The position numbers were made by a program, and so were the translations under genes. From assembly GCA_002633005.1 (NCBI GenBank), contig NMRA01000560.1:211740-275739 (forward strand): a stretch of DNA of 64,000 bases. Reading direction: 5' to 3'. The notes under the pieces were generated by a model. It saw nothing but the letters and a program-made list of their open reading frames with translations. It searched no databases and was not told the origin of the DNA. Positions 220 to 53,124 of this stretch are shown piece after piece (the first letter of the stretch is position 1; every line of letters starts with the position of its first letter). The stretch comes from Phoronis australis. Its lineage: Eukaryota > Animalia > Phoronida.

Positions 220-1239
220 ATGATGGAAGCTGAAAACGGTTCGTCTGTGAAACAGCCCACAGATCTAAATCAGGGCATCGTACCTCAGTGGGCGACAGTG
301 TTTGTGGTGATGATTTATTTATTAACCGCAGTCGTTGGAACAGTTGGAAATATGCTCACTATAATTGTTATAAGTATTAACAAAAAGCTTCAGAAAGGAC
401 ATAATGTTTATATTGCCAACTTGTCAGTTGCTGACGTGTTGATATGTTCCATCGTGTGTCCTGTTCAAGTGTCTTGGATAGCTAAAGGAGAAAAGCCTGA
501 TTATGAACTGTGCATATTTATGGCTCAGTTTACAAACTGTAGTATTATTGTATCAGTGCTTAGTCTGGGTTTTATTGCTGTCAATCGCTACATCAAAATT
601 GTTAAACCTACTTCAGTTTATCTAAAAGTCTTCACCAAACTAAACATTGGTATCAGTTTGATTATAATGTGGCTTTGGGCTCTGATGTTGTCGTCCCTTC
701 CGTTGGTGGGTTTTGGAAAATATGGCTTTTACACTAAAACGTTGACATGCGCTTTCACTGACGACTCTTTAAGTACAATATTCATTGTCGTTTCGATTTG
801 CGTTAATTTCATCCCCACCGTGTGTCTAACAGCCGTCTGTTATATTGCCGTAATACGTCATTTTCGAAAGATTCATGCTGCGGCGCAAGCTCATGGCGCG
901 CTCACATTATCCGATTCAACTGCTGCAGACTCAAACAATGCAAGTTTGGAGTCACAGCATCACCACCATCATCATCAAACAAACGGTAAATCATTTATTG
1001 TGGTTAAAAATGTGCTCGTGGTGTTTGTACTATTCATAGTGTTCTGGGCACCTCTAGGTACTCTAATTGCGTTGTTTGAATACGGCTCCTTCCCAAGTTC
1101 TGTCTGTGCGTTATTAATGGCTTTGGCTACAGCAAACTCTTCAGTTAACTTCTTTGTCTATGCCGGAATGAACAATGCTTTCCGAAAGGCCTACATGAAC
1201 CTTGTTACGTTCAAGTGGACGCAATTACGACACGGTTAG
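220..1239 (+). CDS. Intronless class A (rhodopsin-like) GPCR, melatonin-receptor-like
   Basis: Seven hydrophobic segments. Motifs: TM1 GN, TM2 NLSVAD, TM3 NRY in place of DRY, TM4 W, TM6 FWAP, TM7 NSSVNFFVY, helix-8 NNAFRKAY. N-terminal NGS sequon. The ATG at 220 is preferred to the TTG at 175. Confidence 0.9.
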   Translation: MMEAENGSSVKQPTDLNQGIVPQWATVFVVMIYLLTAVVGTVGNMLTIIVISINKKLQKGHNVYIANLSVADVLICSIVCPVQVSWIAKGEKPDYELCIFMAQFTNCSIIVSVLSLGFIAVNRYIKIVKPTSVYLKVFTKLNIGISLIIMWLWALMLSSLPLVGFGKYGFYTKTLTCAFTDDSLSTIFIVVSICVNFIPTVCLTAVCYIAVIRHFRKIHAAAQAHGALTLSDSTAADSNNASLESQHHHHHHQTNGKSFIVVKNVLVVFVLFIVFWAPLGTLIALFEYGSFPSSVCALLMALATANSSVNFFVYAGMNNAFRKAYMNLVTFKWTQLRHG

Positions 1240-2735
1240 AGGACAATTGTTGTCTCAGATTGTCAATTACTGTCAGTGACTTTTTGGAGAATCACGAGAA
1301 TGTCGTTAATACTCTCGTTTCACATCGACATATAGGAATTCGGTACTGAAATTGAACGTTGTGCGGTTTCCGGCCGGCTGTGCTCCGTTGTACTATATAT
1401 TAGTGAATACTTTCAAGGAATTCCTGAACGAAAAGTAGACTTCATGAACAGTCAGAGAACGGATGAAACTGAAAGGGAAGAATGTCCGACGTGACTGTTC
1501 CGGATTACACTGGGACACTTGAATCTTACGGTATTTACCCGCAATGCTGCGGCATCTGTCAAGCAATTCTTTAGACTCGTTTTAGTGTCATTGGAGTTTC
1601 TCATATTATTTGTTTGTACCTTGCATTGACATGTAACAACGCGTCTCCTTCCTCAATGTATTTTAACATCACTAAGGCAGTGACTACGTGATAAACGGAA
1701 CATATGTACAGTACCACACTTTTTTATTCCATGTGACAACTTCATATGAAGAGAAATAATCAACAAAGCATGAAAAATTCCGCAAAGGTCAACAGAATTT
1801 CACGAATTTCGACTCGAACAACACTTTAACAGTTGCTCGGATTTTCACACAAAACTATTTTTTTACGTGAATATTTTTTGTTTTATTTTCGTAAAAAATT
1901 TGCGAAGGCACGTGACCTTCAGGTACAGTCTTACCAGAACACTCACCATGCACGTCATAAATGTATGTACTTGTAGAGTTCAGACATCGCGCACAAATCA
2001 CAATACACGTGTTAGCTTCTCCCCACAGTTATGATGATGTTCACACATTTTCTATTCGGGAAGCGAGTTTTGTATTTCAGGTGGTTGACCGACATCGTTC
2101 AAATAGCGGGATTTTCAAATTGGCGCACTCTAGAGTAATGAGAGCGCAAAACCGAGCTCCGCTCGATCCCGACTCAGATTTGGTGGACAGAAATTCAATT
2201 ACTGCATCGTGTTTCATTAATTTAAAAACATAGGGATAAATCCCATAATCAGCGCCAGCTCCCATTGCTGGATTAAGTGAAGTTCACTTATTTATTTTTG
2301 ATTTTTGACATCGGCTGGGATCATAATTCCCCCGCTTTTGAGTCGTAGCTAACTGTCTTTGCAGGCACGTATTCTTCTCTCAGGGTAAGTTCAGGAGCGC
2401 GCCCTGCGCTATTGGCGCAAAAATACAATCACTGACGCGCTGTGATTGCTTAATCCAGGCCAATGGGCCTGAAAGGAAAATAACATGTAATTCAAATTGG
2501 TCCATAAACTTGAGGACGTGTGAGTCATTTCACCCATACTCGAGTTTTTTTAATGATCAATCATCTGCCTGTTCTCCCTAGTGGGAAACGTATAGAACTT
2601 GATGCCTTATCAACGAATACATGTACTTCAAAAAATTTGCGTTTTGTCGTAAACTATTAGTACACCCAAATGCACTGCAATGGAAATTTGCCGGCTTCAT
2701 GATAGAAGGAAACGTGTTGAAGCGCTGTTAATACC

Positions 2736-3840
2736 CACAGGCGCTTGGGTTCATCGCAAATGACGTCACTCATAATATATAAGAAAACATAAAGGTTGGA
2801 CACTCGAAATCTGTTTGCTCAAAATTTTCTTCTCAAATGTGCACGGAACTCCACGAAACTAGCATCGAACAACTCTTAGAATACTTTCTTTCATTCGATC
2901 TCTTCAAATTGCCTTCAAGTGGTAATTTGGCGACAAAAATGCCAAAAGAATGCCAAAATCACAAATTCAAGGACCTAATTCCGTGATGTCATGACAGAAG
3001 GGTCTTCGCACATCCGGGTTTTGACAGACGCTCCCCAGCTAAATCCGAAGTCTAATTTCGCGCCGCTTTCGCCGTCAATCCATCGACTACTTGATCATGA
3101 GAAGCAGAGAGCACTTTATTGCCAAATAAATGTAATTACTCACATATTTGTGTCAAATATAAATCATCCTGAAACTGTATTGATATGCGAAGTTTTTTGT
3201 GTACGGTGATTTCTTATGAAGGTTTTACTTTTGGCCAAAACCATTGAGTTAACTCGTCGGCCACGCGCATTGTAATACTTGCACGGACTGCGTTTCCTGG
3301 CCGAGTGTGTGTTGTGCTTCAATCAAAAAAGTGCGTGATGTCAAGATGAGAAACAAGATACGCCAGTTTATGCAATAAAATTCTAAGTTAAGGGCTAAAA
3401 TGAGCCGTCAGTGGAATAAAATTACAAATAATCATTAAAATACTAACTTTAACATTCTCAATTAGTTGAGTTTTGGATTAGAGTTATTGAAATATAGGTT
3501 GCTTGCTCAAACTCGAAGTTTCACCTACGTCAGGCGTACAAGTTGAAGCACAACTGAAATCCGCCATGTTTACTATTTCAGGTCCTTGAATTAAGAGTTT
3601 TGAGATTGTTTTGGAAATTCCATCGCCAATTCACCACTCACGAAGACAGTTAATGGGATCTAGGAAAGATAAGGCTTCGAAGGTTTATGCAACACCAGAC
3701 TGAGGGAGGTGCACGAAGATTTTATTTGGATTTTGGACGGTTGAAGTTGGGAGCCTCGGCTTGGCAAAGTTTAAGTGTCCAACCTTTATATTTTCTTATA
3801 ATTTGAGTGACGTCATTTGCGATAAACCCAAGCGCCTGTG
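2736..3840. mobile_element. Non-autonomous TIR element (MITE) with 8-bp TSD, hAT/P-type
   Basis: Termini are CACAGGCGCTTGGGTT...AACCCAAGCGCCTGTG. The inverted repeat is clear for ~70 bp and imperfect to ~240 bp. Perfect TSD TTAATACC at 2728-2735 and 3841-3848. No coding capacity. Confidence 0.9.
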
Positions 3841-4189
3841 TTAATACCAAAGGCAGAAACTTCCCGTTTGCATTGCATGAACCCTGTAGGTGGCACTGAA
3901 AGCCTGTCTACAAAATGTCTGATCGCCGTCTGACGGGGTAGTGAATTTTAATATGGCGCGGCCATTTCGAAAATCATCTATTTCGGTGGGACTAACCGGG
4001 GAAGACAATCAGTTGATAGGTCAAAACTGAAACTAGCGTAACCTTTTCAAAACTAATTTCATTTTTACGCTTGAAACCAATAAGAAGTGAGCACAAATTT
4101 TACACTACATTTTCCTCGACGTTACTGAACATGCTTTACTATCTCGCACGGCTGTCTAGATTTCGAGTTCGTTCCCAAATGTTTGCTAG

Positions 4190-5200
4190 GGAGAAGGCGT
4201 GATGTGATAGTAGACAGAACTGATTACATAAATTCTTTAAAAAACAATCTTAAGGATGAAGTTACACTTTACATAGAAGGGCAGTTACAGAGTTATTTAC
4301 GCAAGGTTAAGAATAGTGGTCGATTCGGTGCCGATACTATTTATATCCTCAAGATACAACTTTATGGTCTACATAAAATGTACCAGGGTGGAGACGGCTT
4401 CTTTCATCCATTTAAAACCATTGTGTCTTCTGTGAACCGTAGCGCACCATAGGGGGCTGGGGGGAGGGCTATAGCCCCACTTTTTTCAGTGCTGCGCCGC
4501 CCATGGTCTGTACGTGGTGCGCCACAGGGGGGCTGGGGGGCTTTACCCCCACTTTTTTCAGTGCTCCATCGCCCATGTGAACACGTAACCGTTTGTAACC
4601 TTGCCACATACCCAGTACAAGCTACTCAAACTCCATGGTAATGGTGATTACGGAGCAGGTGAGAAGCTCTGTTTTGTCTACGAGATCACTGACTGTTTCA
4701 TGGCCTGGTTTGACTTTGAAAGTCTCTTTCCTAACTTGCCTGTTGATGACTGTTTGTCTGGCAATTGATTGTATTCTTAGAACTAGCCCTGACCTTCAAT
4801 TGACACGAGAAGAACTCATGGCGTTATTTGAATTTTCTAGAACTAAGTCCCATTTTCTGTTTAATGGGTAAGTTTTTAATCATGTCGATGGCATAACAAT
4901 GGGCTCTCCTCTTAGCCCCCGCATAACACTTGGTCATCATGAAAAACACGGAATGAGCATAACACTGGTTCCTGTTTACATTTCTATAGTAGACATTAGA
5001 TGATGTGCTTTTTTATTTGATCATGAACAATATTTTTAATAAAGAATTTTATATCTTTTTAAACTCCAGGCATCCAAATTTCATATTCACTATAGCGTTT
5101 GAGACGCGAAACCAAAGGGCCTTTCTAGGTGGGTTGGTGAAACATTCTTTGAGTTCTGTGGTTATATCCTTGTTTCGTAAGCTCGTGAGAAAACTTACGC
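4190..5200 (+). pseudogene. Degenerate Penelope-like retroelement reverse transcriptase
   Basis: Frameshifted remnants in the expected order: LYGLHKMY..PFKTIVSSVN, FDFESLFPNLPVDD-like, SHFLFNG..DGITMGSPL, IDD-like, FLNSRHPNFIFT. Interrupted by a two-copy G/C-run insert at ~4445-4580. Confidence 0.7.
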
Positions 5201-12500: not shown

Positions 12501-13684
12501 GTCAGAATTCTGACACATTTTTACGAAAATCGGCGGAATATCACAAGTAATATGAAGTTATATCAACTTAACATTTTCTACCAATATAATATAAAAGTGA
12601 AAAATGACGGTATATTGCAGCAATTTAGGTATGAAATGATGCATTTTCATTCGAAAACAGATTTAATTCCTATGATACTAGTAACAAAAAAGAATTGAAA
12701 ATAAGTAGTCGAACAACCTTTATTTCAAACAGTAACCAAATGTCTTCTGCTTCATGAATTGCAGCAACAACGCCTGTGAAAATAATTAAAATCTGCCTTT
12801 GTTTAAATGCCGTCAAGGCAGCGGCCAATCATTGGGCGGAAGGTATTTCCCATAGACCCAATTCACGCGGCGGACATTAAAATCCAAAGCGAGGCTCACT
12901 GTGATAAACAACTTGAAGTTAACATTGCGTGAGTTAAATAGCCGGTCTTTCGAGTCCAACCTGGATATTAAATTTTAATAATGTGTCGACAATTAACTAC
13001 AGAGATGTAGAAAATTACATTAGAGAACAGGTTAAGGCGCCAAAGAGTTGTCTGACGAAAGAGTTTAATTTTTTTCGGAAAACTGGGTTCGAAACATGAA
13101 AAGTAAATATGACGGCGATCGTAGTGTTACGCTAAGTGAACATAATGGGTCTGGGGTCTTGACCCATTATGACCATTTTAACCCATTAAGACCATGCTGA
13201 CATGCAAATCTTATGCTAACAGGATTTGCATGCAAGTGGACGAGAAAGCGTGCATTGTTTACCAAGAGTAACCAGCGAAGTCCTCATCACCCCAAGGCTT
13301 AATGGCGCCCTCACGGATTGAGGTGAGCTAATCACTATTCGTGGCTTGGCTGAACCAATGAGCTATACCTGCCTCCCGTTCAGTAACGCTAGTACCTCGC
13401 TAAAAAGCAAGACTTCGCGAGATTACGTGACTAGATATAGCCGTGTATTTTAAATGAGAACACGTGATTCTGGCTAGATTTTAGGTAGGTCAGTCATAAC
13501 GTAGGTCCTAGCGCTACTGAACGCAAGCCTGGTATAGCTAATGGGGCTATTCGGAAAATTGTCCTCGCGGTGTCGCTGCTGTACTGGTGGTGATTGAATT
13601 GCGCATGCATGGCTGTCTGCATGTAAACAACTGGTAAAAGATGCAATTTTTATCAAAATACGTCGTCGCGCTAAGCCTTATTAC

Positions 13685-13733
13685 CACCCCGGCCAACCCG
13701 CGATCGAGAACGACCGGAAGGCGATCGAGAACG
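13685..13733 (+). repeat. Left TIR
   Basis: CACCCCGGCCAACCCGCGATCGAGAACGACCGGAAGGCGATCGAGAACG. Confidence 0.95.
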
Positions 13734-13762
13734 AAATTTGGCGCGAGAAGTGAAGCCAGAAA

Positions 13763-16700
13763 ATGTAAGTAAATTTGATGAATTTTCGGTTGTTTTGAGC
13801 TTCAATACAAAAACAGAGACATGAGTTCAAGGCGTAACACATTGAGGAAGGCCAGGTAGAAGTTTAGGCTTGTGTCTCGTCCAAATATTGGAGAAAAGTT
13901 ACGTTAACCGATGCATCGCTTGAGCCGAAGGTGATTTGTATGTCATTTTTGCAGATTTTGGTTATTTTTGGTTCTATATCAATATATTAATCATGAAGTT
14001 ATGAAGAAATGACGTATGAAAATGTAACTCAACGCCTGCTTTCCGTAGCATTGTCAGGATCTCTGATTTATGAACCTTTTTCTGTTAAAAGAAGCGATCG
14101 AGAACGCAATGATAAGCGATCGGGAACGCACATAAGAGCTCGCTAAAGCGATCGGGAACGCATTGCGGTGTGTTGAACAATAGTGAACTTTTCAGTAATA
14201 AAGAGTTTTAAAAGTTACAAAACAAGTGTGGTTCAATGAATTAATGATATTTTNAGCTTCCGATTTTACCCGTTTGGGAAACCGGCTTTCAACTGCCGTA
14301 GGCTACAATAAGAATCCCCTCCCCGTGAAAGGATTTTTTCTAAGCGTTTATTAGAGCTAATACAGTATACAGCTTTCCACCAAGGCTAGGTGATACTACG
14401 ACAATATTCTTTGTTGCATTAGTAACTGGTCTTGGCTAATATTATCATTTTATGGTCTGGTCATCCTTTCAGCCAAAAGTAGTTCCAGAGGTGGCTTATC
14501 AGCCAATTATTCACGCATGCTGACTCACAATAGAAGCCTGATAAGAGTGAAGGTGGATAAATGCGGTGTTCCTACAGTTTCTTGTTTTAGTGGATGTGTT
14601 CACGACATGTTTTTGCAGATTTTGGTTATATTTGGTTCTATATCAATATATTAATCATGAAGTTATGAAGAAATGACGTATGAAAATGTAACCCAACGCC
14701 TGCTTTCCGTAGCATTGTCAGGATCTCTGATTTATGAACTTTTTTCTGTTAAAAGAAGCGATCGAGAACGCAATGATAAGCGATCGGGAACGCACATATG
14801 AGCTCGCTAAAGCGATCGGGAACGCATTGCGGTGTGTTGAACAATAGTGAACTTTTCAGTAATAAAGAGTTAAAAGTTACAAAACAAGTGTGGTTCAATG
14901 AATTTATGATATTTTGCATCATTACTGTGTTACTTTCGTGTCAAAAACTAAATTTCATAGCATAGCATCCCTTACCAAAAAGGCCTCCTGCAAACACTTC
15001 CAGCAAGCTTGCCGCAAAAGTTTCTGCAAACCAGCCACAAACACATGGAGTGATCTGTTGTAAGTTTCCTGCAACCCAGCTGCAAACATTGCAGCAAGCT
15101 TGCTGCATGTTTGCCGCTAGCATGCATCAAACTTTCACCACGCAAATGAAGTTTGCAGCAAGCTTGCAGCAAACACCTCCATGTCCTTATTTGGAACAGT
15201 TCCTGCAAGGCAGCTGCACACATTGCTGCAAACTTGCTGCAAACATCTTCATGGGGTTATATAGAAGTTTCTGCGAACCACCTGAAAAAATATTGCTGAT
15301 TACTATTTTTGCTTCCCAATATGGTTTCATGAAACGCCAGTCTACTGAATGGGCTTTTGTTGAAGTTGTATGTTGAAATTTGCAATATTTCGACTAGGGA
15401 TATCATCCAACAGCAACATTCATTTAGCTAAGGCATCAAACATAAATTAAACCTTTCCATTCTACAATATTTCTTAGGTGTTGAAAAGAACAATTCTACT
15501 TCAGACTAATCTGCATTGCAGCAATCAGTGGTGTTCCATAGGGATCATGGGATGATCGCTCCACTTTTCTTCCTTAGCATATATTTCCATAAAATCACCA
15601 TGAGCACTACATGTACAGCAAGTGTTATATTTTAGTTATGGATATTTTCACAAATGATTTTTTTTTTCAGGAAACAATTTCATTGTTATTATTGCCCTGC
15701 AAGCTTCAACGACCATGAAAAAATCATTGCCCACGCTGTGGCGGTGCACCCTTCCAGGGTTTTAAAGTACAGGCGNCAGCAATCAGTGGTGTTCCATAGG
15801 GATCATGGGATGATCGCTCCACTTTTCTTCCTTAGCATATATTTCCATAAAACCACCATGAGCACTACATGTACAGCGAGTGTTATATTTTAGTTATGGA
15901 TATTTTCACAAATGATTTTATTTTTATTTCAGGAAACAATTTCATTGTTATTATTGCCCGGCAAGCTTCAACGACCATGAAAAAATCATTGCCCACGCTG
16001 TGGCGGTGCACCATTCCAGGGTTTTAAAGTACAGGCGTCTCCTTTTAGATGAAACTACTGGGAAAATGGGACTCCAAACTAAGACGCACCCAGGAGTTAC
16101 TCCACAAGACGTATCAGCTGGGGGAAAACAAATTGTTGCGGCTGATGAAAGTGAGTGCCGAATATTTTTATAAAACTGCGACAACAAAAGAAAAAAACCA
16201 AACACGCCAGTGAAGTCAAGCAATGATAGTGAGTTTGCCAAAGAAAATCTGAAAATAGTTGAGACTCCCAGTAATGAAGAATTAGAGTTTGAAAAGTTGT
16301 GCTTCTTGCTTCCCCAAGTCATAGAGACAATGAAAGAAAATGGTCCCATGGAATCTTACGTGAAACTGAATGAACTTCTTGCCTCAGGTAGACTGCCTTT
16401 GAACAACATATGTTTCCTACTATTCCTGGATATAGTCGAGTGGTTTTCGGTAGAAAACACTTCCAAAATGCGTTACCAAAACCCACAAACTCTTCGGTTC
16501 TGGGAAATTGGCTACCAGCTATTTCCTGGAAAGTTCATCAGATTTATGTCTGGACAACGAAATACAGGTCAGATTTTAGATCAGTCAACATCAAGGGGAG
16601 AGTATAGCCCAGATGAATCCAAAGTGAACTTTGCAGTGCCATCTCTGACTACAATACAACAAATCCCTTCTAAAAGGAGTCCGTTTTTTCCAGGAATAAA

Positions 16701-19700
16701 CAAGCAGACAATTGAAAATATAGCCCACACTTATGAAAGCTCTCCTGTAATTTTAGTTGTGGATGGAAAAAAAATAAGTAGCGGAAAGGGCAAACGCATG
16801 GGGATATTGACCTGTGGGGTTTTGAACCAAAGCCAACTCTTCAGGAAAGACTGAACCAAGTTGAAAGGGAAGTGGAATTCGTGAATGAGCTAACCAAAGA
16901 AACGGATAGACTAATGACCTATAGTGTTCAGACCATTAGTGCAATACCCTCAACATCACGTGAAAAAATTCATTCCGGACTCGTTGAATTGATTAAGTTC
17001 ATAGGATATCGTAATAAAACAATGAGAGACACTGAACAGACGCTAATCCGCTCTGAAGAGAAGTTCAAGCGACTCGGCGGAGATGACTGGATGAAATCCA
17101 AGTATTTCCCGGTCATCTCTTTGATGAGGACAAAACGCAGTGAAATTTGTGCCCACCTAAAAGAAGGTCTTCAGCTGTCAGACGAGATCACAAAATTGGG
17201 AATTGACCTAAATGGGAAATCAAACCTTTATTCCGAGAAGTTAGTTAAGCTTGCGGAACAACAGAACTTTTATTCACTGAACCCGAACTTCAATAAGTCG
17301 ACTGATCCACGTTATATGCAACAAAGAACCCCGGAGTGGTTTTCTTTGCACAGCGAAGCGAAAGTTACTGGAAGTACAGCCAACTGTGCACTCGGCTTAG
17401 AGACCTTAAAAAGACAAAAAGAACAGTTTCACCAAGTAATTCACGGCATAGAAAAACCTCGTCACAGTGCACTTAACACTCAGAGAATGCTTTATGGAAC
17501 TGAACATGAACTGGATGCAGTCGCAACAATGACATCTAAAGTGTTGCCGTTTCTGTTTTCAGAACTGAGCTATTATGAAGAAGGATGCCAAACAATACCT
17601 CACGGCGACAAAGCAGCATTCATGTTAGTGAGTTCGGATGGCAGTCTCAGAACAAATGATAATGCAGAACCAATAATGATGTTTGAAAACAAGTGCAAAG
17701 CACCCCAGTCCTATAATCCTAATGCATACTACAAGATTCCTAAATATTACGCTGTATAGTTACTCTCTGAGATGTTTGCTTACAGATGTGAGAAATTACT
17801 CTTTACGTGCTGGTCAGAGACGTCACTTACTGCTTTCATGGTTAAGTTCGACCATCATCTATGGGGAATGTGCTGGGAGGAAATGACAGAAGTGTATGGC
17901 AGTCCAAATCCAAATCTACCTACTAAGTTCAGACCTAGTCGAAAGCTCATCCAAGAACAAATCGCTGCATTTATGGAGAATGACATCCACTTTCTCGGTG
18001 AGTTTATGTCGTGTGTTGCTGTGAGATCACCATCGTCAGACGTCCAAAGTGATGACGCTTATATATCGCCACAGAGTTCAAATGACGCCAAGCCAATTTC
18101 TACAGCTAGAGACTTACAGAACTGCCTTGTGTCGACGAAAAACTGGATTAATCGGGCTTATCAGTTGTCTAGGACAACTGCATCAGAGATTCTGGTCTAC
18201 ATGGTGAATGATTTAGACCGGACTTACCATGCCGAAATAAATGTTGCTCATCCTATAGCGTATGCAATGAAGGGAACAAGCATGAATAATGCCACCTTTA
18301 GAAGTATGATGAATCACGTTATCTCTGAATGTGAAGCAAGGGGTCTAAACGTGCTGGCCACGTCTAGTGATGGACAATGGCATAAGTACGGAGTTCGCGG
18401 TGATGACAACGAACCATTGACTGTCTTGCAATTACAGAAAGATCACTGGTCAAGTGTGATGTCACAAGATAAGAAGACGATTATGTCCCAAATAAAATCT
18501 AAAGCAAGTGTAAAGAGTTTTCCTGAAGATGTCCAAAAAGAGTACAATGTCAATGGTTCCGTGACTGTCTGGCACAAGACAGATTCACCGATGACTGGGT
18601 ATCTAAACACAGAGCACTCAAAATCCCAGAGAAATGCAATCATTGATGCTACTTGCCAGAACAGATATGATGGAACTGAATCTCAGCTGTTATCTGTAAA
18701 AGAAACATGTCTCGCACTCCTTGAGGATGAACACTTTGAAAACACCTCTCTCGAAACTCTAAATGCTGTTGAAAATGTAATTGAAAGCTCAGTAACAAAT
18801 AACGTGCAGAATTCACATGAGTTCCTTGGACAGGACTATTTTGTCGAACCATGGTTGTTCCAAGAAGAACCAGGTACTGCACAAAGTTTTGGTGTAACAT
18901 CTGACGTGCTCTCAGGGGCTTTTGAGGCCATGTACAGTAGTGGCCATGACGACTTCTATGTGCAAACTGTGATCGATATGAGTGTTGATAAAATACCTTT
19001 AAGAAGAGATGGTGAGCATATGGAATTGGGCGAAGAAAATCTCAACTACACAGTATATCCCAATGATGACAACACGTGTGGACACAGAACATGTACTTGA
19101 AAGTAAGGAGAATGGAAATGCGGAGCTATTAGTTTCTGAGAATCGTTACACTGTGGACACTGCAACGTCTGAATCTATGCTGAATGCTTTAAAAGCAAAT
19201 GAAATGGCTGAAAACTATCATAAATGGTCTCAAAACTGTTGAAGACTTCAAAAGACTTTTTGCATGTAAGACCATGTGCACTTGCAACAAGGCACTCCAC
19301 AATTTTGAACTCCAAATGTGTCTACAAGTGTTACGTGTGCAGCACGGTGTTTGTTTTGACATTAAACCCTCAAAGAAGGAGCTAATTTAGTTGTTCACGT
19401 CTACATTGAACTTTGGGGTAAATCCCCCTAATAGGAAGTATCATCAGCGCAATCGAAGTGTTTGCTCACTTAGAAAAAAGTTTTGAGGGCGATGTAAGTG
19501 TAAATTTATTTTCACACAAGGGCTCGTATGTATAATTAAAATAGTTAGGAACTAGTTGAACTGTAAGAAATTATATTAATTTAACAATTAGCTTGTCATG
19601 TTTTGTAAGAGGTGCCACTAAGAATTTAAATTGTTTCAAATGCATTCACGTTTACATGTTTAATCTTCTATAAAACCCCCTACTTGGTTTCAGATCATTC

Positions 19701-20436
19701 TATATGTCAACCACACGAGCCGGAGTGTATCCAATGAGACAGTTTGAGTCCGATGAAACCCAAGAATGTTTTCACTACCAAACGCAAGGCATTCATTCTG
19801 CATTAGTTTCTAGTCTGATAACTTCAAGGTTAGTGTTATGTGATACACGTTAACTGTAATTGTTTTCTTATATGCATTACTTTTTTCTGTAGTCTCTTTT
19901 TTCGTCTTCATCTATTCGTTATCATAATGTCGCGTATTAGTGCTGATAAAGGCACGTAAAGCACCATTGTTTTAAAAAATATTCAAATCGTGGCATTGTC
20001 ACATAAGCAAGGTCTTCATGAGCGCCGGGTCAAAAATACCCTTCAATAAATAAACGTCCAAGCGCTTATGCATGATATTACGGTATTTCCACTACTTTGA
20101 AAACAGTGGCAAGTGTAATGCAGCTTACAGGCTAGCGTCGAAAGCTTTAAAGGAGGATTGATTATTCATAAAGTTTTGAGACCTCATAAGGTCGTAACCC
20201 TTTCATTCTCTTCAGTAGACGACGATACTAAATTCAAGATTCCTTTTTCCAGGGACCATTAATTTGATTCAGAGCAAAGGGATCGGAAGAAGCATCTTCA
20301 GAAAGGAGGGAAAGTGTCGTTGCCAAGCGAGCCCGCCCATGGTGAGAAAGGAGTGCGACAACACCATTCGCGAGATGACTCGAAGATACCTGCTCATAAA
20401 CGACTCGGATTTCAAAATTTGTCAGAAGTTGTATAG
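13763..20436 (+). pseudogene. Disrupted spliced transposase gene: N-terminal C2H2/BED-like finger, P/THAP9-like RNase H core, inserted YqaJ domain
   Basis: AT|GTAAGT at 13763-13770 joins AG|G at 15933 to give MKQFHCYYC...H....H. The main exon (15933 to ~19493) reads through TAA 16171, a 1-nt frameshift near 16801 (repair gives GDIDLWGFE), TAG 17757 and later frameshifts. D1 is in ILVVDGKK (16762) and D2 in LATSSDG (18369). YqaJ motifs lie at ~17320-17815. Putative small exons at 19694-19828 and 20216-20436. Confidence 0.75.
14969..15256. mobile_element. Small MITE-like insert with CCC...GGG ends and repeated GCAAAC/GCAAGCTT motifs, inside transposase intron 1
   Basis: Dense direct and inverted (T)GCAGCAAGCTTGC and GCAAAC repeats between CCCTT and ATGGGG. 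TSD not clear. Confidence 0.45.
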
Positions 20437-20964
20437 CCAAAAGTATTGTGGTGATAAAAGTGGTGGGATTTTGTTTAATGGTTTACTAATAACATCCATA
20501 CAGAGTTGAACAGACTGACTTGCTACATCCTTGTGGCTTGTATGTGTTTGTGTTCTTGGTCCCCAGTTCACTGTGCTATTTCAGTTCATGGGACATTGAA
20601 AAAGAGTGAGAGGAGTTGTAATACACATACTATATTGTGATTTTCTCAAAACGCGACAATGTTGTCTTTAAGTCATTTCAAGACACACTATAGTAACTAC
20701 ACTGGAAATCAACAATATGAAAGCAAATTCCGTAATAATAGTAATCTTTTAATCACACGTCATCTCAAAATAGCTCTGGGTATTCAACATTACAAAGTCA
20801 TTGAACATTCCCCACGAGGTATTTTTGGAATGCATTGCACTTATTATAGACACTTATTTTCTTTTTAAAATCTTATGGTAATAACAATGGCCAATGGCAC
20901 TTAGTACGGTCATTTGAATATACCTAAACACTACTGGACTTAATGAAGCTTCTGTTTTTTGTGC

Positions 20965-21434
20965 CTACAGATGCTTGTACGATTTGCCGCATTCACAACA
21001 GAAAGCAGTGACCTCGTGTTGTGACGCAATGTGTCGCTTTAGGCTCACTTTCTCTGTGAAACATTGGTTGCAGGCATGACACTGAATTGTCTTGTCTCCT
21101 GAGCACAGTGCTTCATGTTGTGACTTTTTGTACCTATTGAAGAAATTCTTGCCACATAAAACACATGAAAATGCTTTGTAGTTTGCGTGCTGGCTCATGT
21201 GATCTTGAAACTTTGTTTGTCTCACGAACACTTTCCCACAGTTCGTCACTGGGCAGGTGAACGTCTTAGTTGCAGTCCTGTCACAATGCTTTGTTGCCCT
21301 GTGGTCAAGCAGTGTTGATTTTTTACTAAACAAAGCTCCACAAGTCACACATAGTCCTTTGTCACAAGCACTAGTTCTCCTTTTTGAAGGCGTAGACGTT
21401 AAGAAGCGAAAAGACTCATCTTGTGGCAGAAGTT
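20965..21434 (-). other. Near-identical second copy of the zinc-finger exon ending at a single N; probable allelic or assembly duplicate
   Basis: ~20770-21434 repeats ~21450-22252 with scattered SNPs and one indel; junction N at 21435. Confidence 0.75.
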
Positions 21435-21782
21435 NAAAATATATAAAATATAGCTCTGGGTAATCAACATTACAAAGTCATTGAACATTCCCCACGAGGT
21501 ATTTTTGGAATACATTGCACTTATTATAGAAACTTATTTTCTTTTTAAAATCTTATGGTAATAACAATGGCCAATGGCACTTAGTATGGTCATTTGAATA
21601 TACCTAAACACTACAAAAATGCACTGGTTCTATTTAAGATAGATAAAATAACACAAATGTAGAAACAGAAAAAGGTTCAAAATATCACATCTGGCAACTG
21701 CCAACCATAAACTCTTTTAATCAGAATAAAAACTTAAAACAAATTTCACTACTGGACTTAATGAAGCTTCTGTTTTTTGTGC

Positions 21783-22876
21783 CTACAGATGCTTGTACGA
21801 TTTGCCGCATTCACAACAGAAAGCAGTGACCTCGTGTTGTGACGCGATGTGTCGCTTTAGGCTCACTTTCTCTGTGAAACATTGGTTGCAGGCATGACAC
21901 TGAATTGTCTTGTCTCCTGAGCACAGTGCTTCATGTTGTGACTTTTTGTACCTATTGAAGAACTTCTTGCCACATAAAACACATGAAAATGCTTTGTAGT
22001 TTGCGTGCTGGCTCATGTGATCTTGAAACTTTGTTTGTCTCACGAACACTTTCCCACAGTCCGTCACTGGGCAGGTGAACGTCTTAGTTGCAGTCCTGTC
22101 ACAATGCTTTGTTGCCATGTGGTCAAGCAGTGTTGATTTTTTACTAAACGAAGCTCCACAAGTCACACATAGTCCTTTGTCACAAGCACTAGTTCTCCTT
22201 TTTGAAGGTGTAGACATTAAGAAGCAAAAAGACTCATCTTGTGGCAGAAGTTCAACTAAAAAATATCAAAAGCATTTCAGTTATACTTGTTAGGTTAAAT
22301 CTCACAAAAATCATGAAAAACAGTGAAGTATAATAAACAATCAACCCGCCCGGCGCCTATTTCAGGGCCGGTACGTATTAAATGTAAAACTGACATAACA
22401 GCGTAACTTGAACGAGTATTCAGGCTAATGCATAGAAAAAGAATGTGCATTCACGATCGCTTTTTTTGCGTTCACGATCGCCATATGAAAGTAACGATTT
22501 CGTTCTCGATCGCCGTCTCGCACAAGGACAAGCTTGTATTGGTAAATATCTCGAATTGTTTCACAAAACATAACTTCGAAAGGTGTCACCTGGGGCAATG
22601 AAGCTCTAAACGTCACACTTCTTTACTTTAGAACTCTGGAACTGCTAATAACAAGTAAAACTTGTTGACTTTACGACGCGCAAGACATTTTATCCCTTCC
22701 GTAATGAAAGACCCGGGAAATAAACTATTTTATTCGTTTTCGGTTCGTAGTAAAGTATAGCGCAACAAAGCTTAAGCTCTGACGCTTTTCTCTGTGTCGC
22801 ATTCGTGCCAAAGTAGCCACTATTTAAGAAGAAAATGACACTAAGACTCACTGGGTACATCATCGTCGTCTGCCAT
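21783..22876 (-). CDS. Two-exon C2H2 zinc-finger protein carried by the transposon (four complete fingers plus a truncated fifth)
   Basis: Exon 1 (22876-22852) encodes MADDDDVP and ends at GTGAGT. It splices in frame to exon 2 from 22255 (TTTTTTAG acceptor): IELLPQDESFCFLMSTPS..., then CxxC...H...H fingers. The last finger (CECGKSYKH) stops early, but ...CRHKKQKLH* continues in another frame. Confidence 0.8.
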
Positions 22877-22892
22877 TTTTGCGACAAAGTGG

Positions 22893-22941
22893 CGTTCTCG
22901 ATCGCTTTCCGGACGTTCCCGATCGCGGGTTGGCCGGGGTG
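22893..22941 (-). repeat. Right TIR
   Basis: Reverse complement reads CACCCCGGCCAACCCGCGATCGGGAACGTCCGGAAAGCGATCGAGAACG, three mismatches to the left TIR. Confidence 0.95.
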
Positions 22942-24476
22942 CTTATGCAGTCGACCTCACCGCTTGTCGAGAGGCATCACGTTAACCTGAGAGAAAGGTG
23001 AGAAACGATGCAGCGACGCCAGTGCTTCATATCTGCAGAGTGAATGCCGCTATATATTGTGGTACATCGCTTCACGCTTGTCCGAACTATGAAGCTGCGA
23101 AGAAAGCGGGTATATTGTTTTTTCGACTTCCTCGAGAGCTAGAAATGCTTAGGAAGAGGCTCGTGGTAGTGAAGAATGAAAAGTACGCTGTTAATAGCAA
23201 ATATGAGGCCGTCTGCGGCCGGCATTTCGTCGACAGTGATTTCTCTGACGAATTCCGTCTTACCAAAGAACTATCCATACGTTCCGTTGCCTGTGCATGT
23301 TCACGGGGCATCTCTAGTATTCCTTGATCAGTGTATTCCGGTTGGAACTGATAGCCTGTGAAACCTAACAATCCAACCTGTGAAGTCTTCGTCGGATGAG
23401 CTCTCTAAGTCGAGATTTGCGGAGGGCGAGTTGCCATGTAGACGTTCATTATTATGCGTTCTGTTTCAAAATGAATTATTCTCACCCAAACCAATGCTGA
23501 TATAAAACTGAAACAGTCTGTCTCATTAGATACAATTTGTACTGCCTTTGGAGTATTCGTGAGTGCAAATGTTTTGAGAAGCCAGCAATGAATAAACTAC
23601 TGCGTTACCGGCTTTAGATGCAATAAAAGTAATTGACCGGGCACCGAGGCCGTGTGAGCGCATGCTAATTAATTCAGTGTTTGCTGACAGAAAGCTGTTG
23701 TGAAAAAATAACTCGACTTGATATGCTATGGTCACATGTTAAGGGAATCTTTATTTAGATATACAAATACATTATTCAAATCAGTGTTACTCGGTACAAC
23801 CTCCGGCTCTGACAGTTCTGTGGAAGGGGAACCTGACTTCGCAGCGTGGCTAATTCACCTAAATAATTACGTGCACAGTATTTCTTTGCCTCACTATTAT
23901 GTGTTTTCGTGATTGGAGGTTCATTTTCCAACTTAAGCAGGTTTATGTTCGTGATGTCCAGTCCAGGCGGCCGCGACGGGCCTGACCAGGTTCCGAGCCA
24001 CCTGCGGGGAGTAACAAGCGTTTTGTGTGTTTAGAACTGAAAAAATCGCAAGACTAAAAGTGCAACACACAGTTATGTTCCCCCGTCTGTATTTCACGGA
24101 AGAATGATTCCAATTTATCACCAAACAGACCCAAACTCCCACGATCGACCATGATAAATTGGCCTAAGGAACCTAGGAGTCTACACTCCTTGACCGGCAA
24201 ACTCTGTGAGTTACCGTACGTTCAAATACCTACAAATCCGTAACAGCAAAATAAAACAACACGTTTGTTCAAGAGCTCTATGTATTTGTAAGGGTTTTAC
24301 ATCGAAATTTGATGATTTATTGGGGTGAAACGACGCATTCAAGCGAAAAGTTGACACCAGTAAGCGTGTTGTGAATGGCTGAACAGACTGTGAGAACCGA
24401 TTATGTCATTGGTTGGAGTAGAACTACACGATCTAAATTGATACAAAATAGGTTGTTTTTTGGGTGGCATTCTCCT
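22942..24476 (+). mobile_element. Right part of a non-autonomous Kolobok-like element with a THAP remnant
   Basis: Homologous to 47952-49644. THAP motifs FFRLP, CGRHF..DF. Ends GGGTGGCATTCTCCT followed by TCAA. Confidence 0.75.
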
Positions 24477-25067: not shown

Positions 25068-28000
25068 ACAAGAGCAACGCGGAGCGTTGAAATGCTCCCA
25101 CGAATGCATTGCAAATGGTGTGCTTCTAGGGTTATTTATTTGTATCATGGCGACTAGATGGCGCAAAAACATAAAATCCATCCAAAAACTGGAACATGCC
25201 ATATTTCATAAAAATCGGTCAAGGAACTTCAGAGAAACAAAGGAAAACAGAATAAAATGAGAGCGCTCGGAAGAGCGACACTTGGCGGAATTAATCGAAA
25301 AGACGACAATGAGAGCGACGACGACAATCATGACGATCTAGGCGGCAATTATGAATAAAACGATAACATGCATGTGACTAGCGAAGAAATCAAATAGAGA
25401 GCATACAATCAACTACAATAAAGAACAATAGATGGCGCAACATGACGGACGAGCCATGCTTTACAGCAGGACAGTGCTGGCTGGGTCAGTCTGGGTCAAC
25501 TAGGCATAATCAAAACAAAGTGAACTGAAAGCCAGCTGCGTGCTTGCATTGGTGACCGAAGGAACAACGGTATCCGAAAATCTCGAATAATTCAAAAAGT
25601 AGACGTCGTAGCGCAAAATGGAAAATATCTTCTGAAAGCCCGTTCTAAATTCTATCTAAAGTGGTAGTTTGGCAAAAATCAAAAAAATTTTTGAGAAAAT
25701 TGAAAATTTGCGGTTTTTTTTAAATTTAAAGTCAAATAAATCGAAAACGGTAAGTCTGAGAAATACGCTCTTGCAGTCTTTTTGAAAGGCCATACTTCAA
25801 GGAATTCACATGCAAAAATTCACGTCATTTACTCTTCCCGTTAAAAATGCGACACCAGAGCGATTGAAACCGTGTGAACATGCGCCACAGCCGCCATCTT
25901 GAGAGTGACTTCCGGTTCAATAAATTTTTATAAAAGCTTATTAAACTCAACAAACATGTGACCAGTTTGAAAGTGATTGGTTTGCAAATGCGCCCTCTAC
26001 AGGAGAAAACGTTTTTAGCCATATTTCGGGGTGCGCATGCGCCACGTCCAATATTTCCGCCATCTTTAACCGGAAGTCAACGATTCTCTGCATAATTGTA
26101 GCACATGCGTTGTAGTATATTCGTACCGATTTTCAGCCGTGTAAGTCGTAAAATGCGGCCTCTACGAGTATTTGACTGTGAAATCGGATACAAAATGGCC
26201 GCCACGTCCGCCATTTTGCATCCGATGATGACCAAAAACAATAGCGTTCCAGTACTTCCGGATCTACATGTTGTGTGCAAATTTCGTGAAAATCAGACCA
26301 AAATTGTGACCTGTAGAGAGCGAACAAACAAAAAAAATGAAAGCGCTCTGAGGAGCGAACCTTGGCGAAATTAACCAAAAGGATGACGATAAAGATGATG
26401 ACGAAGATGACGACGATGGTGGTGAGGATGAACAAAAGAAGTAATAATAACATACACATGACGAACGTAGAAGTCCGAAATCAGTAAGAAAAAGGCTAGT
26501 CTTGTGCGACACTTGGCGAAATTAACGGAAAAGACAACGACGGAGAAGATGACGACGATGATGACGAATATGATGATGGTGGTGGCGATGATGAACAACA
26601 TCACAACATTCGTATGATGAACTTAGATGTCATCAATCAATAAGAAATGGGCTTCAGTCTAGTTCAATAGAAGGTAAACCAACATCAATGCAGCAAGAGC
26701 GCTCAACAAAGGAACATTGTTATCAGAAAATCTCCAATAACTCGAAAAGTAGACGCCCTAGCGATAAAGGGAAACATCCTCTGAAAGCCCGTTCAAAATT
26801 CTATCTAAACTGATGGTATTGCCTGATTCCGTAAATTTTTCGAAAAAAATGAAATTTTGAGTTTTTTTTAAGAAATTCAGTCAAATAACTCGAAAACGGC
26901 AAGTCTGAGAAAAAATTGAAAGAACATACTTCAAAAAATCCACATGCAAAAAATCACGTCTTTTTTTCTTCCCGTTTAAAATCGCACTCCAGCACGACTG
27001 AAAATGGGTCAACATGCGCCAGATCCGCCATCTTGAAAGCAACTTCCGGTTTTTTGCCTTTGTATAATAGCAAGTTATAAGAAACTAATACCTGTAAAAA
27101 TTCGAAGAAATTGGTCTTATAATGCGCCCTCTACAGGAGAAAACGTTTCTAGGCCAAAATCGAGGTGCGCATGCGCGATCGCCGATATTTCCGCCATCTT
27201 TAACCGGAAGTGAACAATTTCCGGTATACTTGTAGAAAACTTCCGGTCCATTTACTGTGCCGATTCTTAGCCTTTTACGTAAAAAATTATAGACTCCAGA
27301 AGCATTTGAACCTTGGATCCGATTTTGACGAAAAACAATAGGCTTCCAGTACTTTTGGAAGTACGTGTTGTGTGTAAATTTCGTGATGATCGGACGAAAA
27401 TTGCGACCTGTATCGTGCGAACAAACAAAAAAAAGCTTAGTGGAAGAGCAACATACTTGGCGAAATTTATTTCGCGAAGTAAAAACTTCCTGTCAGACCA
27501 ACATACTTGGCGGAATTCTTCCGCCAAGTAATGAAATTGACACTAGTGGGCACAGTGTCCGTTCCGCCTGAAAGTGATCGTCGTCTGTTGTTATCTTCAT
27601 ATAAATACACTTTCTAAATTTAGTAAAGATCCTGCAGTGGGTTTAAGAGATACAACTATGGGCGCAAAACAAAACTACCACTATGAGGCGCCACAGTAGT
27701 CAGTCACCATCATCAAAGGTCGTCTTCACACTGAGAGCCTTTATGCCAATTTTCATATGATTTGGTTGATACAGTGGTGGACACCAAAAACAAGATTTGA
27801 AAACGCCAAAAATGGCCACTAGGTGGCAAAGTACCTTGATTCCATCCAAAAACAGGAAGATAGCATCATCACACCAATAGATGCCTATACTAAAAATTTG
27901 ATGAAGATATGTTAAGGACCTTTGAAGATACTGAGTTAAACGTAAAAAACTAAAATTGCCACTAGGGGACACAGCAGTAATCAGATCTGTCCGAAAGTCG

Positions 28001-28608
28001 TCGTCATCCGTAGTCAACACCATATTGCTAAATTAAGTAAAGATCCTGCGAGCAGTTTAGGAGATACAGCCATAGGCGCAACAAAAACAAAACTGCCACT
28101 AGGAGGCGCCACAGTAGTCGAAATCGTCGGCAAATCATCGTCAACCGTCCTCTTTATAGTAAGCACATACATGCCAATTTTCACAATCATCCTTTGAGCG
28201 GTTTGGTTGATAGAGGTGTGGACGTAAAAAACAGACTCGAAAACAGTAAAAATGGCCACTAGGTGGCGCAAACTACGTCGGATCCATCCGAAAACGGGAG
28301 GATAGCGTCATCTCACTAATAGGTGCCTACATACCAAATTTCATGAAAATCTGTTCTGGACTTTTGAAGACACAAAGGTAAGCGTAAAAAACTAAAATTG
28401 CCACTAGGGGACACACCGGTAGTCGGATCCGTCCGCAAGTTCGCTCATGCCATGCCGTCCCATTCATGAATGGACCATATGTGCCAAATTTCATGAACGT
28501 ATCTCAAAGGGTTTGGAGATAGAGCAGCGGACGCCGGACGGACGCCGCCCGGACGGGCGGAGATGACGGCATAATGCGTCCACATATAAATATGTGGGCG
28601 CATAAAAA
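25068..28608 (-). mobile_element. Helentron-associated (HINE/DINE-1-like) element, family A, interrupted by family B elements
   Basis: Same termini as 60020-62460: hairpin CAACGCGGAGCGTTG plus a subTIR at the left; GACG/CGGA microsatellite and ATGCGTCCACAT..ATGTGGGCGCAT-AAAA palindrome at the right; CCACTAGG core repeats. Confidence 0.75.
25258..27531 (-). mobile_element. Stack of family B Helentron-associated elements
   Basis: Reverse-complement homology to 53125-54563. Three hairpin+CTTGGCG(G/A)AATT ends (~25259, ~26341, ~26495) and two palindromic ACTTGGCG..CG(C)CAAGT-type ends (~27454, ~27505). Confidence 0.7.
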
Positions 28609-31625: not shown

Positions 31626-34600
31626 TTATGCATTTCTTTTGGCCATTTTTGCCGGACCAGTGCCTATTGATGTTATCTAGAAAGAAGAGAATAAAGTGAT
31701 CACCTAAGGAAAACACTTAAGCTAACATTCATGAATGAATGGTTTATCTCTTACTGACTCCATAAAGCAAAGTTTGCCACTTGTGAACAGAGAGACATTC
31801 ACAACTGTAACTATTAACCAGCTTCACTAGCATTCAGCCAGCTTGATAATGAACACTCTCATAAGAGAGAGGGGGCAACTACAATTTTCAAAGAAAAAAA
31901 TGTCCATGTTGCCTCTAGAAAAACCATGCCAATGTTTTTTGTTATGCCTGTAGGATGTCCAAATAGACCATAAAAAATTCACGCCTTTTTTGAACATGGC
32001 TATAGAATGAAGGAAACTTTTGTGGTGGTAGTTTTTTTGTTTTATATTTACTATGTTACTCAGAGATCTTAGATAAGGAATACTAATCTGAATGTAATGC
32101 AATGAAGGTCTGTATGGAAAACTAGAAAAAAAATCCTATCATAATTATCTTATTAAAGAATCCATTCCGTTTACAGTTTACAGTAATACACAGAAAACAC
32201 ACCTTATAAACAATTATTCCGAAATTCCATTCACTGAATTAAAAAGTTACCATTTCAACAAAAAACAGGCTCATGGCTTGCATTACAAGCAATGAAAATA
32301 AACTGGTTATCAAGATGAGTGATCTAAACAGTTCAAAGAAACTCACGTACAGATTTAATTTTCCTCCCGATAGTCCTTGTGGTATCTTCTAGGGAAACAT
32401 CACCAGTTAACGAGTCCTTCATAATTTCTCTTTTCCCTTCTTCATCAATCCATGGTCCTTGTACTGCACCAAGAACACAGGCATTTTTCTTTATTTCACT
32501 GTTCAGTGTTGCATCTTTACTACTGGAACTAGCGGATTTGTGAGGAACGTTCTTTGGCATAACCTGAGCCTGCCTCGGTACAAACCGGGCCACACACTGC
32601 TTGGGTGCAGAATAGTTCCGCACAACCAGTAGAGGATTCTTTTCAATGTTCGGATTCATTTCAGTCCTAACTGTTGTTTCAGTATTGTCACGAGACTTCT
32701 TGGTATTCAGTTTGAAGGGAGAATTACTTTTGCTGCAACTCTTACTACTAGTTAGTAATTTTTCAGGACATTCTGTGAGCTCTTTTTCGTTTTGTGTTCC
32801 AGGTCTTGGAAAACCAGGGAGTGAACTTCCGAAATATTCTTCTGAGTTCCTCTCCAATTTTCCAGTAGGTACAGAATAGGGCATTTCATACTGACATGAC
32901 TGCACACAGTTTACACGAGTCATCATATGTTGGTTTGACTGCGAGTCCATTACTATGGGACACTGTGGCGAGGCATTCTGGGAAGGATCCACTAAAAACT
33001 GTCCATGTTGGGGTGGCAGAATATGTTCAACATTCTCTCNTCTAGAAAGAAGAGAATAAAGTGATCACCTAAGGAAAACACTTAAGCTAACATTCATGAA
33101 TGAATGGTTTATCTCTTACTGACTCCATAAAGCAAAGTTTGCCACTTGTGAACAGAGAGACATTCACAACTGTAACTATTAACCAGCTTTACTAGCATTC
33201 AGCCAGCTTGATAATGAACACTCTCATAAGAGAGAGGGGGCAACTACAATTTTCGAAGAAAAAATGTCCATGTTGCCTCTAGAAACACCATGCCAATGTT
33301 TTTTGTTATGCCTGTAGGATGTCCAAATAGACCATAAAAAATTCACGCCTTTTTTGAACATGGCTATAGAATGAAGGAAACTTTTGTGGTGGTAGTTTTT
33401 TGTTTTATATTTACTATGTTACTCAGAGATCTTAGATAAGGAATACTAATCTGAATGTAATGCAATGAAGGTCTGTATGGAAAACTAGAAAAAAAATCCT
33501 AACATTATCTTATTAAAGAATCCATTCCGTTTACAGTTTACAGTAATACACAGAAAAAACACCTTATAAACAATTATTCCGAAATTCCATTCACTGAATT
33601 AAAAAGTTACCATTTCAACAAAAACAGGCTCATGGCTTGCATTACAAGCAATAAAAATAAACTGGTTATCAAGATGAGTGATCTAAACAGTTCAAAGAAA
33701 CTCACGTACAGATTTAATTTTCCTCCTGATAGTCCTTGTAGTATCTTCTAGGGAAACATCACCAGTTAACGAGTCCTTCATAATTTCTCTTTTCCCTTCT
33801 TCATCAATCCATGGTCCTTGTACTGCACCAAGAACACAGGCATTTTTCTTTATTTCACTGTTCAGTTTTGCATCTTTACTACTGGAACTAGCGGATTTGT
33901 GAGGAACGTTCTTTGGCATAACCTGAGTCTGCCTCGGTACAAACCGGGCCACACACTGCTTGGGTGCAGAATAGTTCCGCACAACCAGTAGAGGATTCTT
34001 TTCAATGTTCGGATTCATTTCAGTCCTAACTGTTGTTTCAGTATTGTCGCGAGACTTCTGGGTATTCAGTTTGAAGGGAGAATTACTTTTGCTGCAACTC
34101 TTACTACTAGTTAGTAATTTTTCAGGACATTCTGTGAGCTCTTTTTCGTTTTGTGTTCCAGGTCTTGCAAAACCAGGGAGTGAACTTCCGAAATATTCTT
34201 CTGAGTTCCTCTCCAATTTTCCAGTAGGTACAGAATAGGGCATTTCATACTGACATGACTGCACACAGTTTACACGAGTCATCATATGTTGGTTTGACTG
34301 AGAGTCCATTACTATGGGACTCTGTGGCGAGGCATTCTGGGAAGGATCCACTAAAAACTGTCCATGTTGGGGTGGCAGAATATGTTCAACATTCTCTCGT
34401 ATTGCACAAGACAGTCTTGACTGCAAGCCAGTAGATGGCGCTTCGTGAACCAATTGTGAAGTTGGAGTGTGTGTGCAGTCTCCTATATCAATGTTTATGG
34501 CAACAGATGGGCCTGAAGTAGAACTGTGTTTAAGTTGTTGGGAAGCTGTCCATGATGATGACGATGACGATGATGATGGTTCAAGAACTCCTGGAAAATA

Positions 34601-52812: not shown

Positions 52813-53124
52813 ATGGTCACACTTAACTTCTTTAGATTTTAAATTAATGCTCCAAGATGCGTCATGCATGCTGAAAACCAGTCGCATGTTGCACACACTG
52901 CCACCTGGTTTCTACTGCAGTTGATAGGCAATACCGGCTGATTCCCCATGCTTACCACCCCGTACTTGTTTTGCCACCGTCAAAGGGAACAAGAAAACGA
53001 GAGATCCTGGCAGTCTACCATATTTACTTCATAGTTATGAACTTTTCAGAACTCTTTCAGCTGAAACATTTTGTCAAATATCTGATCAATATTATTAAAA
53101 GATAAACACTTTAATTTTTTAATT

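Follow-up and report, generated by a model that had tools for sequence, protein, structure and literature searches.

Transposons of the P superfamily have ends that follow a CA..TG rule. Zebrafish Pdre2 starts with CAT (PMC10983969; this and most other papers cited are represented here by extracts of their text), and the P transposase of Drosophila makes a nick at the 3′ end of its element and a cut in the opposite strand 17 bp further in. The 3′ extensions so left are 17 nt long, and both how the cuts are made and in what order are stated in the extracts to be unknown (PMC7776569). In the bacterial transposon Tn7, a second protein, TnsA, serves the non-transferred strand (extract of bioRxiv 2025.08.27.672191). 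Here we analysed a 64-kb window, by which we mean the whole stretch of 64,000 nucleotides at positions 211,740 to 275,739 (forward strand) of Phoronis australis contig NMRA01000560.1. An element at window positions 13685..22941 carries two spliced genes that face inward from its ends, one for a transposase in which a nuclease is nested, and the other for a zinc-finger protein. We read it, with a probability of about 0.6, as a dead cut-and-paste transposon with a P-fold enzyme, whose nested nuclease would trim the non-transferred (5′) strand and whose zinc-finger protein would bind a motif repeated near both ends.

Predicted fold of the transposase and its nested nuclease

The placement of the transposase rests on its predicted fold. 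The structure compared was a model of homologue P0014, built from a 36-row alignment with a mean predicted local distance difference test score (pLDDT) of 81.9, for which the top Foldseek match was Drosophila P transposase, followed by lambda exonuclease. In VIA-align the model matched P transposase 6p5a at Z 30.8 (root-mean-square deviation 3.0, 329 residues aligned, chain 165-569), the top match among 48,161 chains, and other transposases were far weaker (RAG1 Z 11.7, Hermes and Transib 9.1). A first-pass annotation, made from the letters of this DNA, had proposed a P-like core, and that proposal now stands on firmer ground; its statement that the element fits no nameable family gives way to a placement, by the modelled fold, as a lineage of the P superfamily. 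Searching the PDB by sequence with the family profile produced 0 matches, and long insertions probably hide the P similarity from sequence search, leaving it to be recovered by fold comparison only.

Model residues 244-452 resemble exonucleases of the lambda type (Z 14-16), and the helices flanking this nuclease jointly match four-helix bundles in a wide search (model 87-533), consistent with a nuclease carried on a four-helix stalk; a second long insertion follows the second catalytic aspartate, D2 (model 794-931). The nuclease is inserted after the first catalytic aspartate (D1) and before the following strand in 71 of the 71 rows covering both, a count biased toward fused forms by the ranking of the 150 best relatives with a nuclease-containing profile. 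Counting, among those 150, the rows that cover each site, the transposase core retains D1 in 76/76, D2 in 133/137, the DxxH motif in 109/109 and the third catalytic residue, a glutamate (E3), in 95/96, and the nuclease retains its D in 129/132, E in 130/131 and K in 128/131; the R-motif residue is present in 33/33 in a separate count. Pfam recognises YqaJ in 28 of the 36 aligned rows and, weakly and always below the curated cut-off, PF21787 in 20 of them; YqaJ was not listed for the window's two pieces when these were scanned separately. The internal YqaJ domain claimed at first pass is borne out by Pfam, by the fold match and by conservation, and we are highly confident that this is a P-superfamily transposon with a working nested nuclease. 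Distances among nucleases and among cores are correlated (rho 0.75 over the 17 of 26 rows kept for coverage, a value reached in none of 2000 permutations), and the core tree reproduces each of the four starred clades seen with the nuclease, an agreement that points to one old capture of the nuclease. The annotation had also reported that a THAP domain is missing, and indeed none was found in the 36 rows (Pfam, E<=0.1), nor any THAP-like pattern in the 150 relatives, many rows of which lack the N-terminus; a single N-terminal C2H2-type finger is retained in several relatives.

Word-indexed protein searches returned 25 and 11 relatives, and a profile search returned 1011 clusters at E<=1e-30, rising to 2688 at 1e-10, including fragments and single-domain matches. 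Proteins of the family are ~1,400-1,700 amino acids (aa) long, and the named members come from six bivalves, one gastropod, the annelid Owenia (two families) and amphioxus, most rows being nameless. Two clusters each hold four full-length proteins, 1-19 residues apart and on different contigs, and this near-identity suggests recent copies. An Atlas search with the transposase gave one weak match (0.82, YqaJ 64%). Searches for other loci yielded no usable context. In viral and genome contig collections, 0/51 and 0/60 viral candidates and 0/47 genome candidates were accepted, and the pattern of the element's terminal inverted repeats (TIRs) had 0 matches, blanks of little weight in collections that are mostly prokaryotic. 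Among metagenome contigs, 1 of 96 candidates was accepted, a 4.6-kb intron-rich fragment without ends (L001), whose positions 1064-4627 encode a distant member, 29% identical in its best segment, with several coding introns as against the one long exon here.

It is quite possible, with a chance approaching even, that this architecture already stands in Repbase or Dfam as ordinary mollusc or amphioxus P families, with no paper on the nested nuclease. The size of the family at E<=1e-30 speaks for this, as does the heavy mining, by repeat curators, of the genomes that carry it. UniRef, moreover, automatically labels some members 'YqaJ viral recombinase domain-containing protein', and the lineage would account for many invertebrate proteins so labelled or called 'hypothetical'. 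The literature points the other way: full-text searches, with subscription journals, supplements, Repbase and Dfam outside their scope, yielded no description of a P element with YqaJ, and the extracts of PMC3985635 and PMC5751038 make no mention of YqaJ.

Ends, end motif and the two genes

The left TIR (13685..13733, +) is 49 bp long and starts with CAC, and the right TIR (22893..22941, -) is identical to it at 46 of 49 positions; in 30 shuffled versions of the region, the best inverted match of 49 nt reached 28-33. Each contains copies of a 13-bp motif, GCGATCGRGAACG, at +16 and +37. This motif occurs 12 times in the window (<=1 mismatch; 0.01 expected), always inside the element and oriented inward, in an arrangement mirrored at both ends. 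Three further copies form a left subterminal cluster (14094..14160, +; at +410, +432 and +464), which recurs at 14758-14824 as an assembly overlap, and three form a right cluster (22448..22513, -; at +429, +461 and +482, with 0, 1 and 2 mismatches). Both clusters lie within first introns, so that the halves of the element mirror each other, and both start codons lie 66-79 bp from the element ends. No clean target-site duplication (TSD) was found in the flanks. The best register is 8 bp, pairing CTTATTAC (13677..13684, +) with CTTATGCA (22942..22949, +) at 5/8 positions, for which chance at this one locus is 0.011-0.035; a degenerate 8-bp TSD is thus only suggested.

The transposase gene consists of a split-start exon followed by one long exon and two short ones. 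Its start codon, 79 bp from the left end, appears from the sequence to be divided by intron 1, with bases 1-2 (AT) at 13763..13764 (+) followed by a GTAAGT donor, and the N-terminus so predicted, MKQFHCYYC, resembles those of homologues P0027, P0029 and P0032. Exon 2 (15933..19485, +) encodes in order a single C2H2-type finger (15946-16011), a helical region, the first catalytic D (16762-16764), the helical stalk, the YqaJ or lambda-exonuclease-like PD-(D/E)xK domain (17319..17870, with catalytic D at 17637, E at 17685 and K at 17691), the resumed RNase H strands (from 18180) and the second catalytic D (18369-18371), then an acidic linker and helical insertion, before it ends at a deletion breakpoint. 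Exon 3 (19694..19828, +) is followed by exon 4 (20253..20436, +), which encodes a basic C-terminal tail. Exon 4 is supported by a tblastn match to P0032 residues 1481-1534 (E 1e-8) and by spliced RNA reads. These reads are from an organism designated A, in the runs with the largest share of the window's words (0.64), and were aligned to 15777-20930, the TIRs and the zinc-finger gene proper lying outside that range; the splice 19828/20253 is present in 6, 8 and 2 reads of three runs, all in the same orientation. Two stretches of intron 1, 14916-15290 (repetitive and CTGCAAAC-rich) and 15804-15886 (where many RNA reads diverge), probably represent insertions of other repeats.

The zinc-finger gene lies convergently on the minus strand, with exon 1 at 22852..22876 (ATG at 22876, 66 bp from the right end) and exon 2 at 21758..22255, which encodes five fingers (four C2H2, one C2HC) and carries a frameshift in the fifth. 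The first annotation had described 46/49 TIRs starting with CAC, two spliced genes pointing inward and a separate convergent C2H2 gene, and each of these descriptions holds, the last splice of the transposase being read from RNA and the splice of the zinc-finger gene from sequence alone.

We lean somewhat toward the zinc-finger protein having been an end-binding partner, in place of the missing THAP domain. It may instead have been a passenger or regulator (a captured host gene, an autorepressor or a promoter factor), the ends being recognised by the finger and helical domains of the transposase; this we consider possible, at appreciably less than even odds. Linkage of the two genes was seen at one locus only, no homologue of the zinc-finger protein was found at E<=1e-15 among 6 candidates, and an Atlas search with it returned generic C2H2 clusters. 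The N-terminal finger kept in several transposase relatives also suits a passenger, and the motifs surround both promoters, such that binding could be regulatory. What speaks for a partner is that the layout of the zinc-finger gene mirrors that of the transposase gene, that five fingers fit a 13-bp site, and that diverged transcripts also span the region between the 3′ ends of the two genes (loose ends at 20582 and 20653).

The annotated length of ~9.26 kb is inflated by the assembly. Of the window's nine single-N joins, eight are flanked by duplications of 87-99.9% identity (at 14254, 15776, 21435, 33040, 35646, 38705, 41159 and 52166), which we read as unmerged assembly overlaps. Three lie inside the element, at the left motif cluster, at the start of transposase exon 2 and at the zinc-finger exon, and account for ~1.6 kb of redundant sequence; with the overlaps collapsed, the element measures 7657 bp. 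A second copy of the zinc-finger exon (20756..21435, -), 98% identical across a single-N join, differs from the first by 2 synonymous and 6 replacement changes and is most likely the other haplotype; we accordingly rejected a tandem duplication of this exon as biology. Apparent tandem duplications elsewhere in the window, such as the pair of open reading frames (ORFs) at 32333-33064 and 33692-34624, are probably artefacts too.

Decay, transcription and surroundings

The present copy is dead and internally deleted, more thoroughly broken than the first reading, which called it inactive, had supposed. In-frame stops stand at 16171, 17757 and 20260 (the last of them in exon 4) and frameshifts near 16799, 19071 and 19231. 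At 19485..19486 (+), a deletion of ~0.8 kb (~270 codons, as estimated from homologues) has taken out the DxxH motif together with the GTP-binding-like insertion and the catalytic E. Alignments of full-length homologues to the window run as far as the second aspartate and resume in the last exon, with no tblastn match for DxxH, the insertion or the catalytic glutamate. RNA reads break off behind 19485 (7 reads and 2 contigs) and, on the other side, before 19691 (11 reads), their loose ends continuing into transposase-like sequence.

The reads of organism A, a species whose copies are nearly identical to this one, are spliced and mostly lack the lesions of the window copy. A sense codon replaces the stop at 16171 in 11/13 reads (two runs) and at 17757 in 11/11, and the frame-keeping form at 16799 is present in 2/8 and 9/10 reads. 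Across 20 replacement differences, drawn from 40 rows of 320, the residue of the reads is the commoner among homologues in 11 and that of the window in 4, with 5 ties. Several diverged copies exist, because reads fall in all identity classes (29, 119, 48 and 76 reads of run X7 at 99+, 95-99, 90-95 and <90%); read contigs stand at ~99% and 87-91% identity, and the element has multiple transcribed copies. Expression is low, at 683 aligned reads from ~35 million records. Two domesticated host genes, with the repeats incidental, could also yield spliced sense transcripts, and we regard that explanation as very improbable, given TIRs far above chance, the neutral appearance of the decay in the window copy, and the several diverged copies whose reads mostly lack its lesions. 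Over exon 2 (15949-19216), two runs contain reads of both orientations, and the 3′ exons almost only sense reads; antisense transcription or silencing over this exon is possible. Run X3, labelled 'DNA?', contains a spliced joint and was not used as DNA evidence.

About 100 bp outside the right TIR lies a decayed THAP ORF (23043-23321, +; Pfam THAP E 7e-6), which was considered as the element's own THAP and rejected for its position. No TIR pair was found for an element hosting it, and the present element apparently inserted a short distance upstream of another transposon-like gene. A non-autonomous element of a different family at 2736-3840, whose TIRs are 44 bp long with CAC..GTG ends and which is flanked by an exact 8-bp TSD, TTAATACC, shows that P-type 8-bp insertions occur in the same genome. 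The rest of the window includes an uninterrupted 393-codon ORF (58-1239, +) that by eye resembles a rhodopsin-type seven-helix receptor; a ~450-bp unit containing CCACTAG motifs, repeated in tandem in three arrays (27500-28500, 39900-42700 and 60300-62400); a long dispersed repeat present in inverted orientation at 25254-27536 and 53118-54567, up to 94% identical over 690 bp; and stretches that by eye resemble the reverse-transcriptase end of a long interspersed nuclear element (46428-47370) and the protease of a long-terminal-repeat retrotransposon (55818-56279).

Proposed mechanism and comparison with known systems

In an intact copy, the zinc-finger protein, perhaps with the single finger of the transposase, would bind the motifs at +16 and +37 and those at ~+410 to +480, and help to pair the ends. 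The DDE site would nick the 3′ end of each TIR, and the nested nuclease would cut or trim the other strand inward until halted by the protein occupying +16. The resulting 3′ overhang, of ~15 nt, would be near the P element's 17 nt; the DDE site would then connect the ends to target DNA at positions staggered by 8 bp. Action of the nuclease on the element's own non-transferred strand is a tentative proposal, somewhat short of an even chance. We consider it doubtful, as a further generalisation, that this is an undescribed and widespread two-component branch of the P superfamily, in which the DDE site handles the transferred strand, the nuclease makes the 3′ overhang, like a TnsA of eukaryotes housed within the transposase itself, and the zinc-finger protein sets the point at which trimming stops.

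The same element could alternatively direct its nuclease to the broken ends of the host donor site, the resected gap being refilled from the sister chromatid with a gain in copy number. Lambda-type enzymes resect double-strand ends for recombination, and similar nucleases recur in KolobokE and ISL2EU with unrelated transposases, as would suit a generic repair role; P donor sites, for their part, are repaired by homologous recombination or non-homologous end joining (extract of PMC7776569). We nonetheless hold resection to be unlikely: the nuclease is nested in the core and co-inherited with it, which suggests, indirectly, that it acts near the transposon end. Trimming of the non-transferred strand is favoured over donor resection because the first motif stands at +16 and a 5′-3′-type nuclease is conserved within the catalytic core.

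Several points weigh against the trimming transposon proposed here. The TSD matches at 5/8 only, the model represents homologue P0014 and not the window copy, and the constant position of the nuclease was counted in relatives ranked in favour of fused forms. The near-identical proteins taken as recent copies could be alleles from several assemblies. No fused finger array was found among the 186 proteins scanned, which adds to the single linked locus and the lack of zinc-finger homologues noted above. Lambda exonuclease is a processive trimeric ring, a poor fit in a dimeric transposase. Finally, Drosophila P transposase makes both cuts without an extra nuclease (extract of PMC7776569), so that in principle the reaction can do without a second one.

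Among known systems, Drosophila P, zebrafish Pdre and THAP9 (6p5a, 6pe2) are closest. The present lineage shares with them a predicted helix-turn-helix, split RNase H and GTP-binding-insertion fold, the D..D..DxxH..E order (seen here at family level), CA-starting TIRs within the CA..TG rule, internally deleted copies and, possibly, an 8-bp TSD. Subterminal inverted motifs are shared with Pdre, in which they are 12 bp long and lie ~400 bp in (extract of PMC10983969). It departs from the strict animal P/THAP9 pattern of an N-terminal THAP domain and a single gene: no THAP was found, many members have a single C2H2-type finger, and a convergent zinc-finger gene is present. An insertion of ~480 residues (stalk and nuclease) after D1 extends the D1-D2 distance to ~530-560 residues, as against 73 in P, and with the second long insertion, after D2, the protein reaches the length given above. 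Were end recognition to depend on a zinc-finger array in a protein of its own, the element's specificity would have a modular character that THAP-fused P transposases lack.

[quoted passage not shown] ISL2EU, of the PHIS group, also has two ORFs and a YqaJ domain; its YqaJ lies on the second ORF, beside a THAP-HTH-DDE Harbinger-type transposase, GG ends and an AT TSD (extract of PMC4482050), and the AT TSD, GG termini and separate YqaJ ORF are all absent from the present element. The lineage is a test case for the repeated recruitment of lambda-type exonucleases by Kolobok, ISL2EU and other transposons.

Transib and RAG-like elements share CAC ends, and ProtoRAG has a convergent two-gene layout similar to that seen here; their folds are distant (Z 9-12 as against 30.8), and the second gene here encodes C2H2 fingers and not a RAG2-like protein. 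A likeness of function only is offered by the TnsA and TnsB proteins of Tn7, in which, as far as the extract goes, a DDE transposase is joined by a second nuclease for the non-transferred strand. TnsA has a restriction-endonuclease-like fold. Tn7 differs in being bacterial, in using separate proteins and in having an unrelated transposase family; in the present lineage the nuclease is kept inside the P fold across molluscs, an annelid and amphioxus, an arrangement in which point mutations could uncouple one cleavage step from the other.

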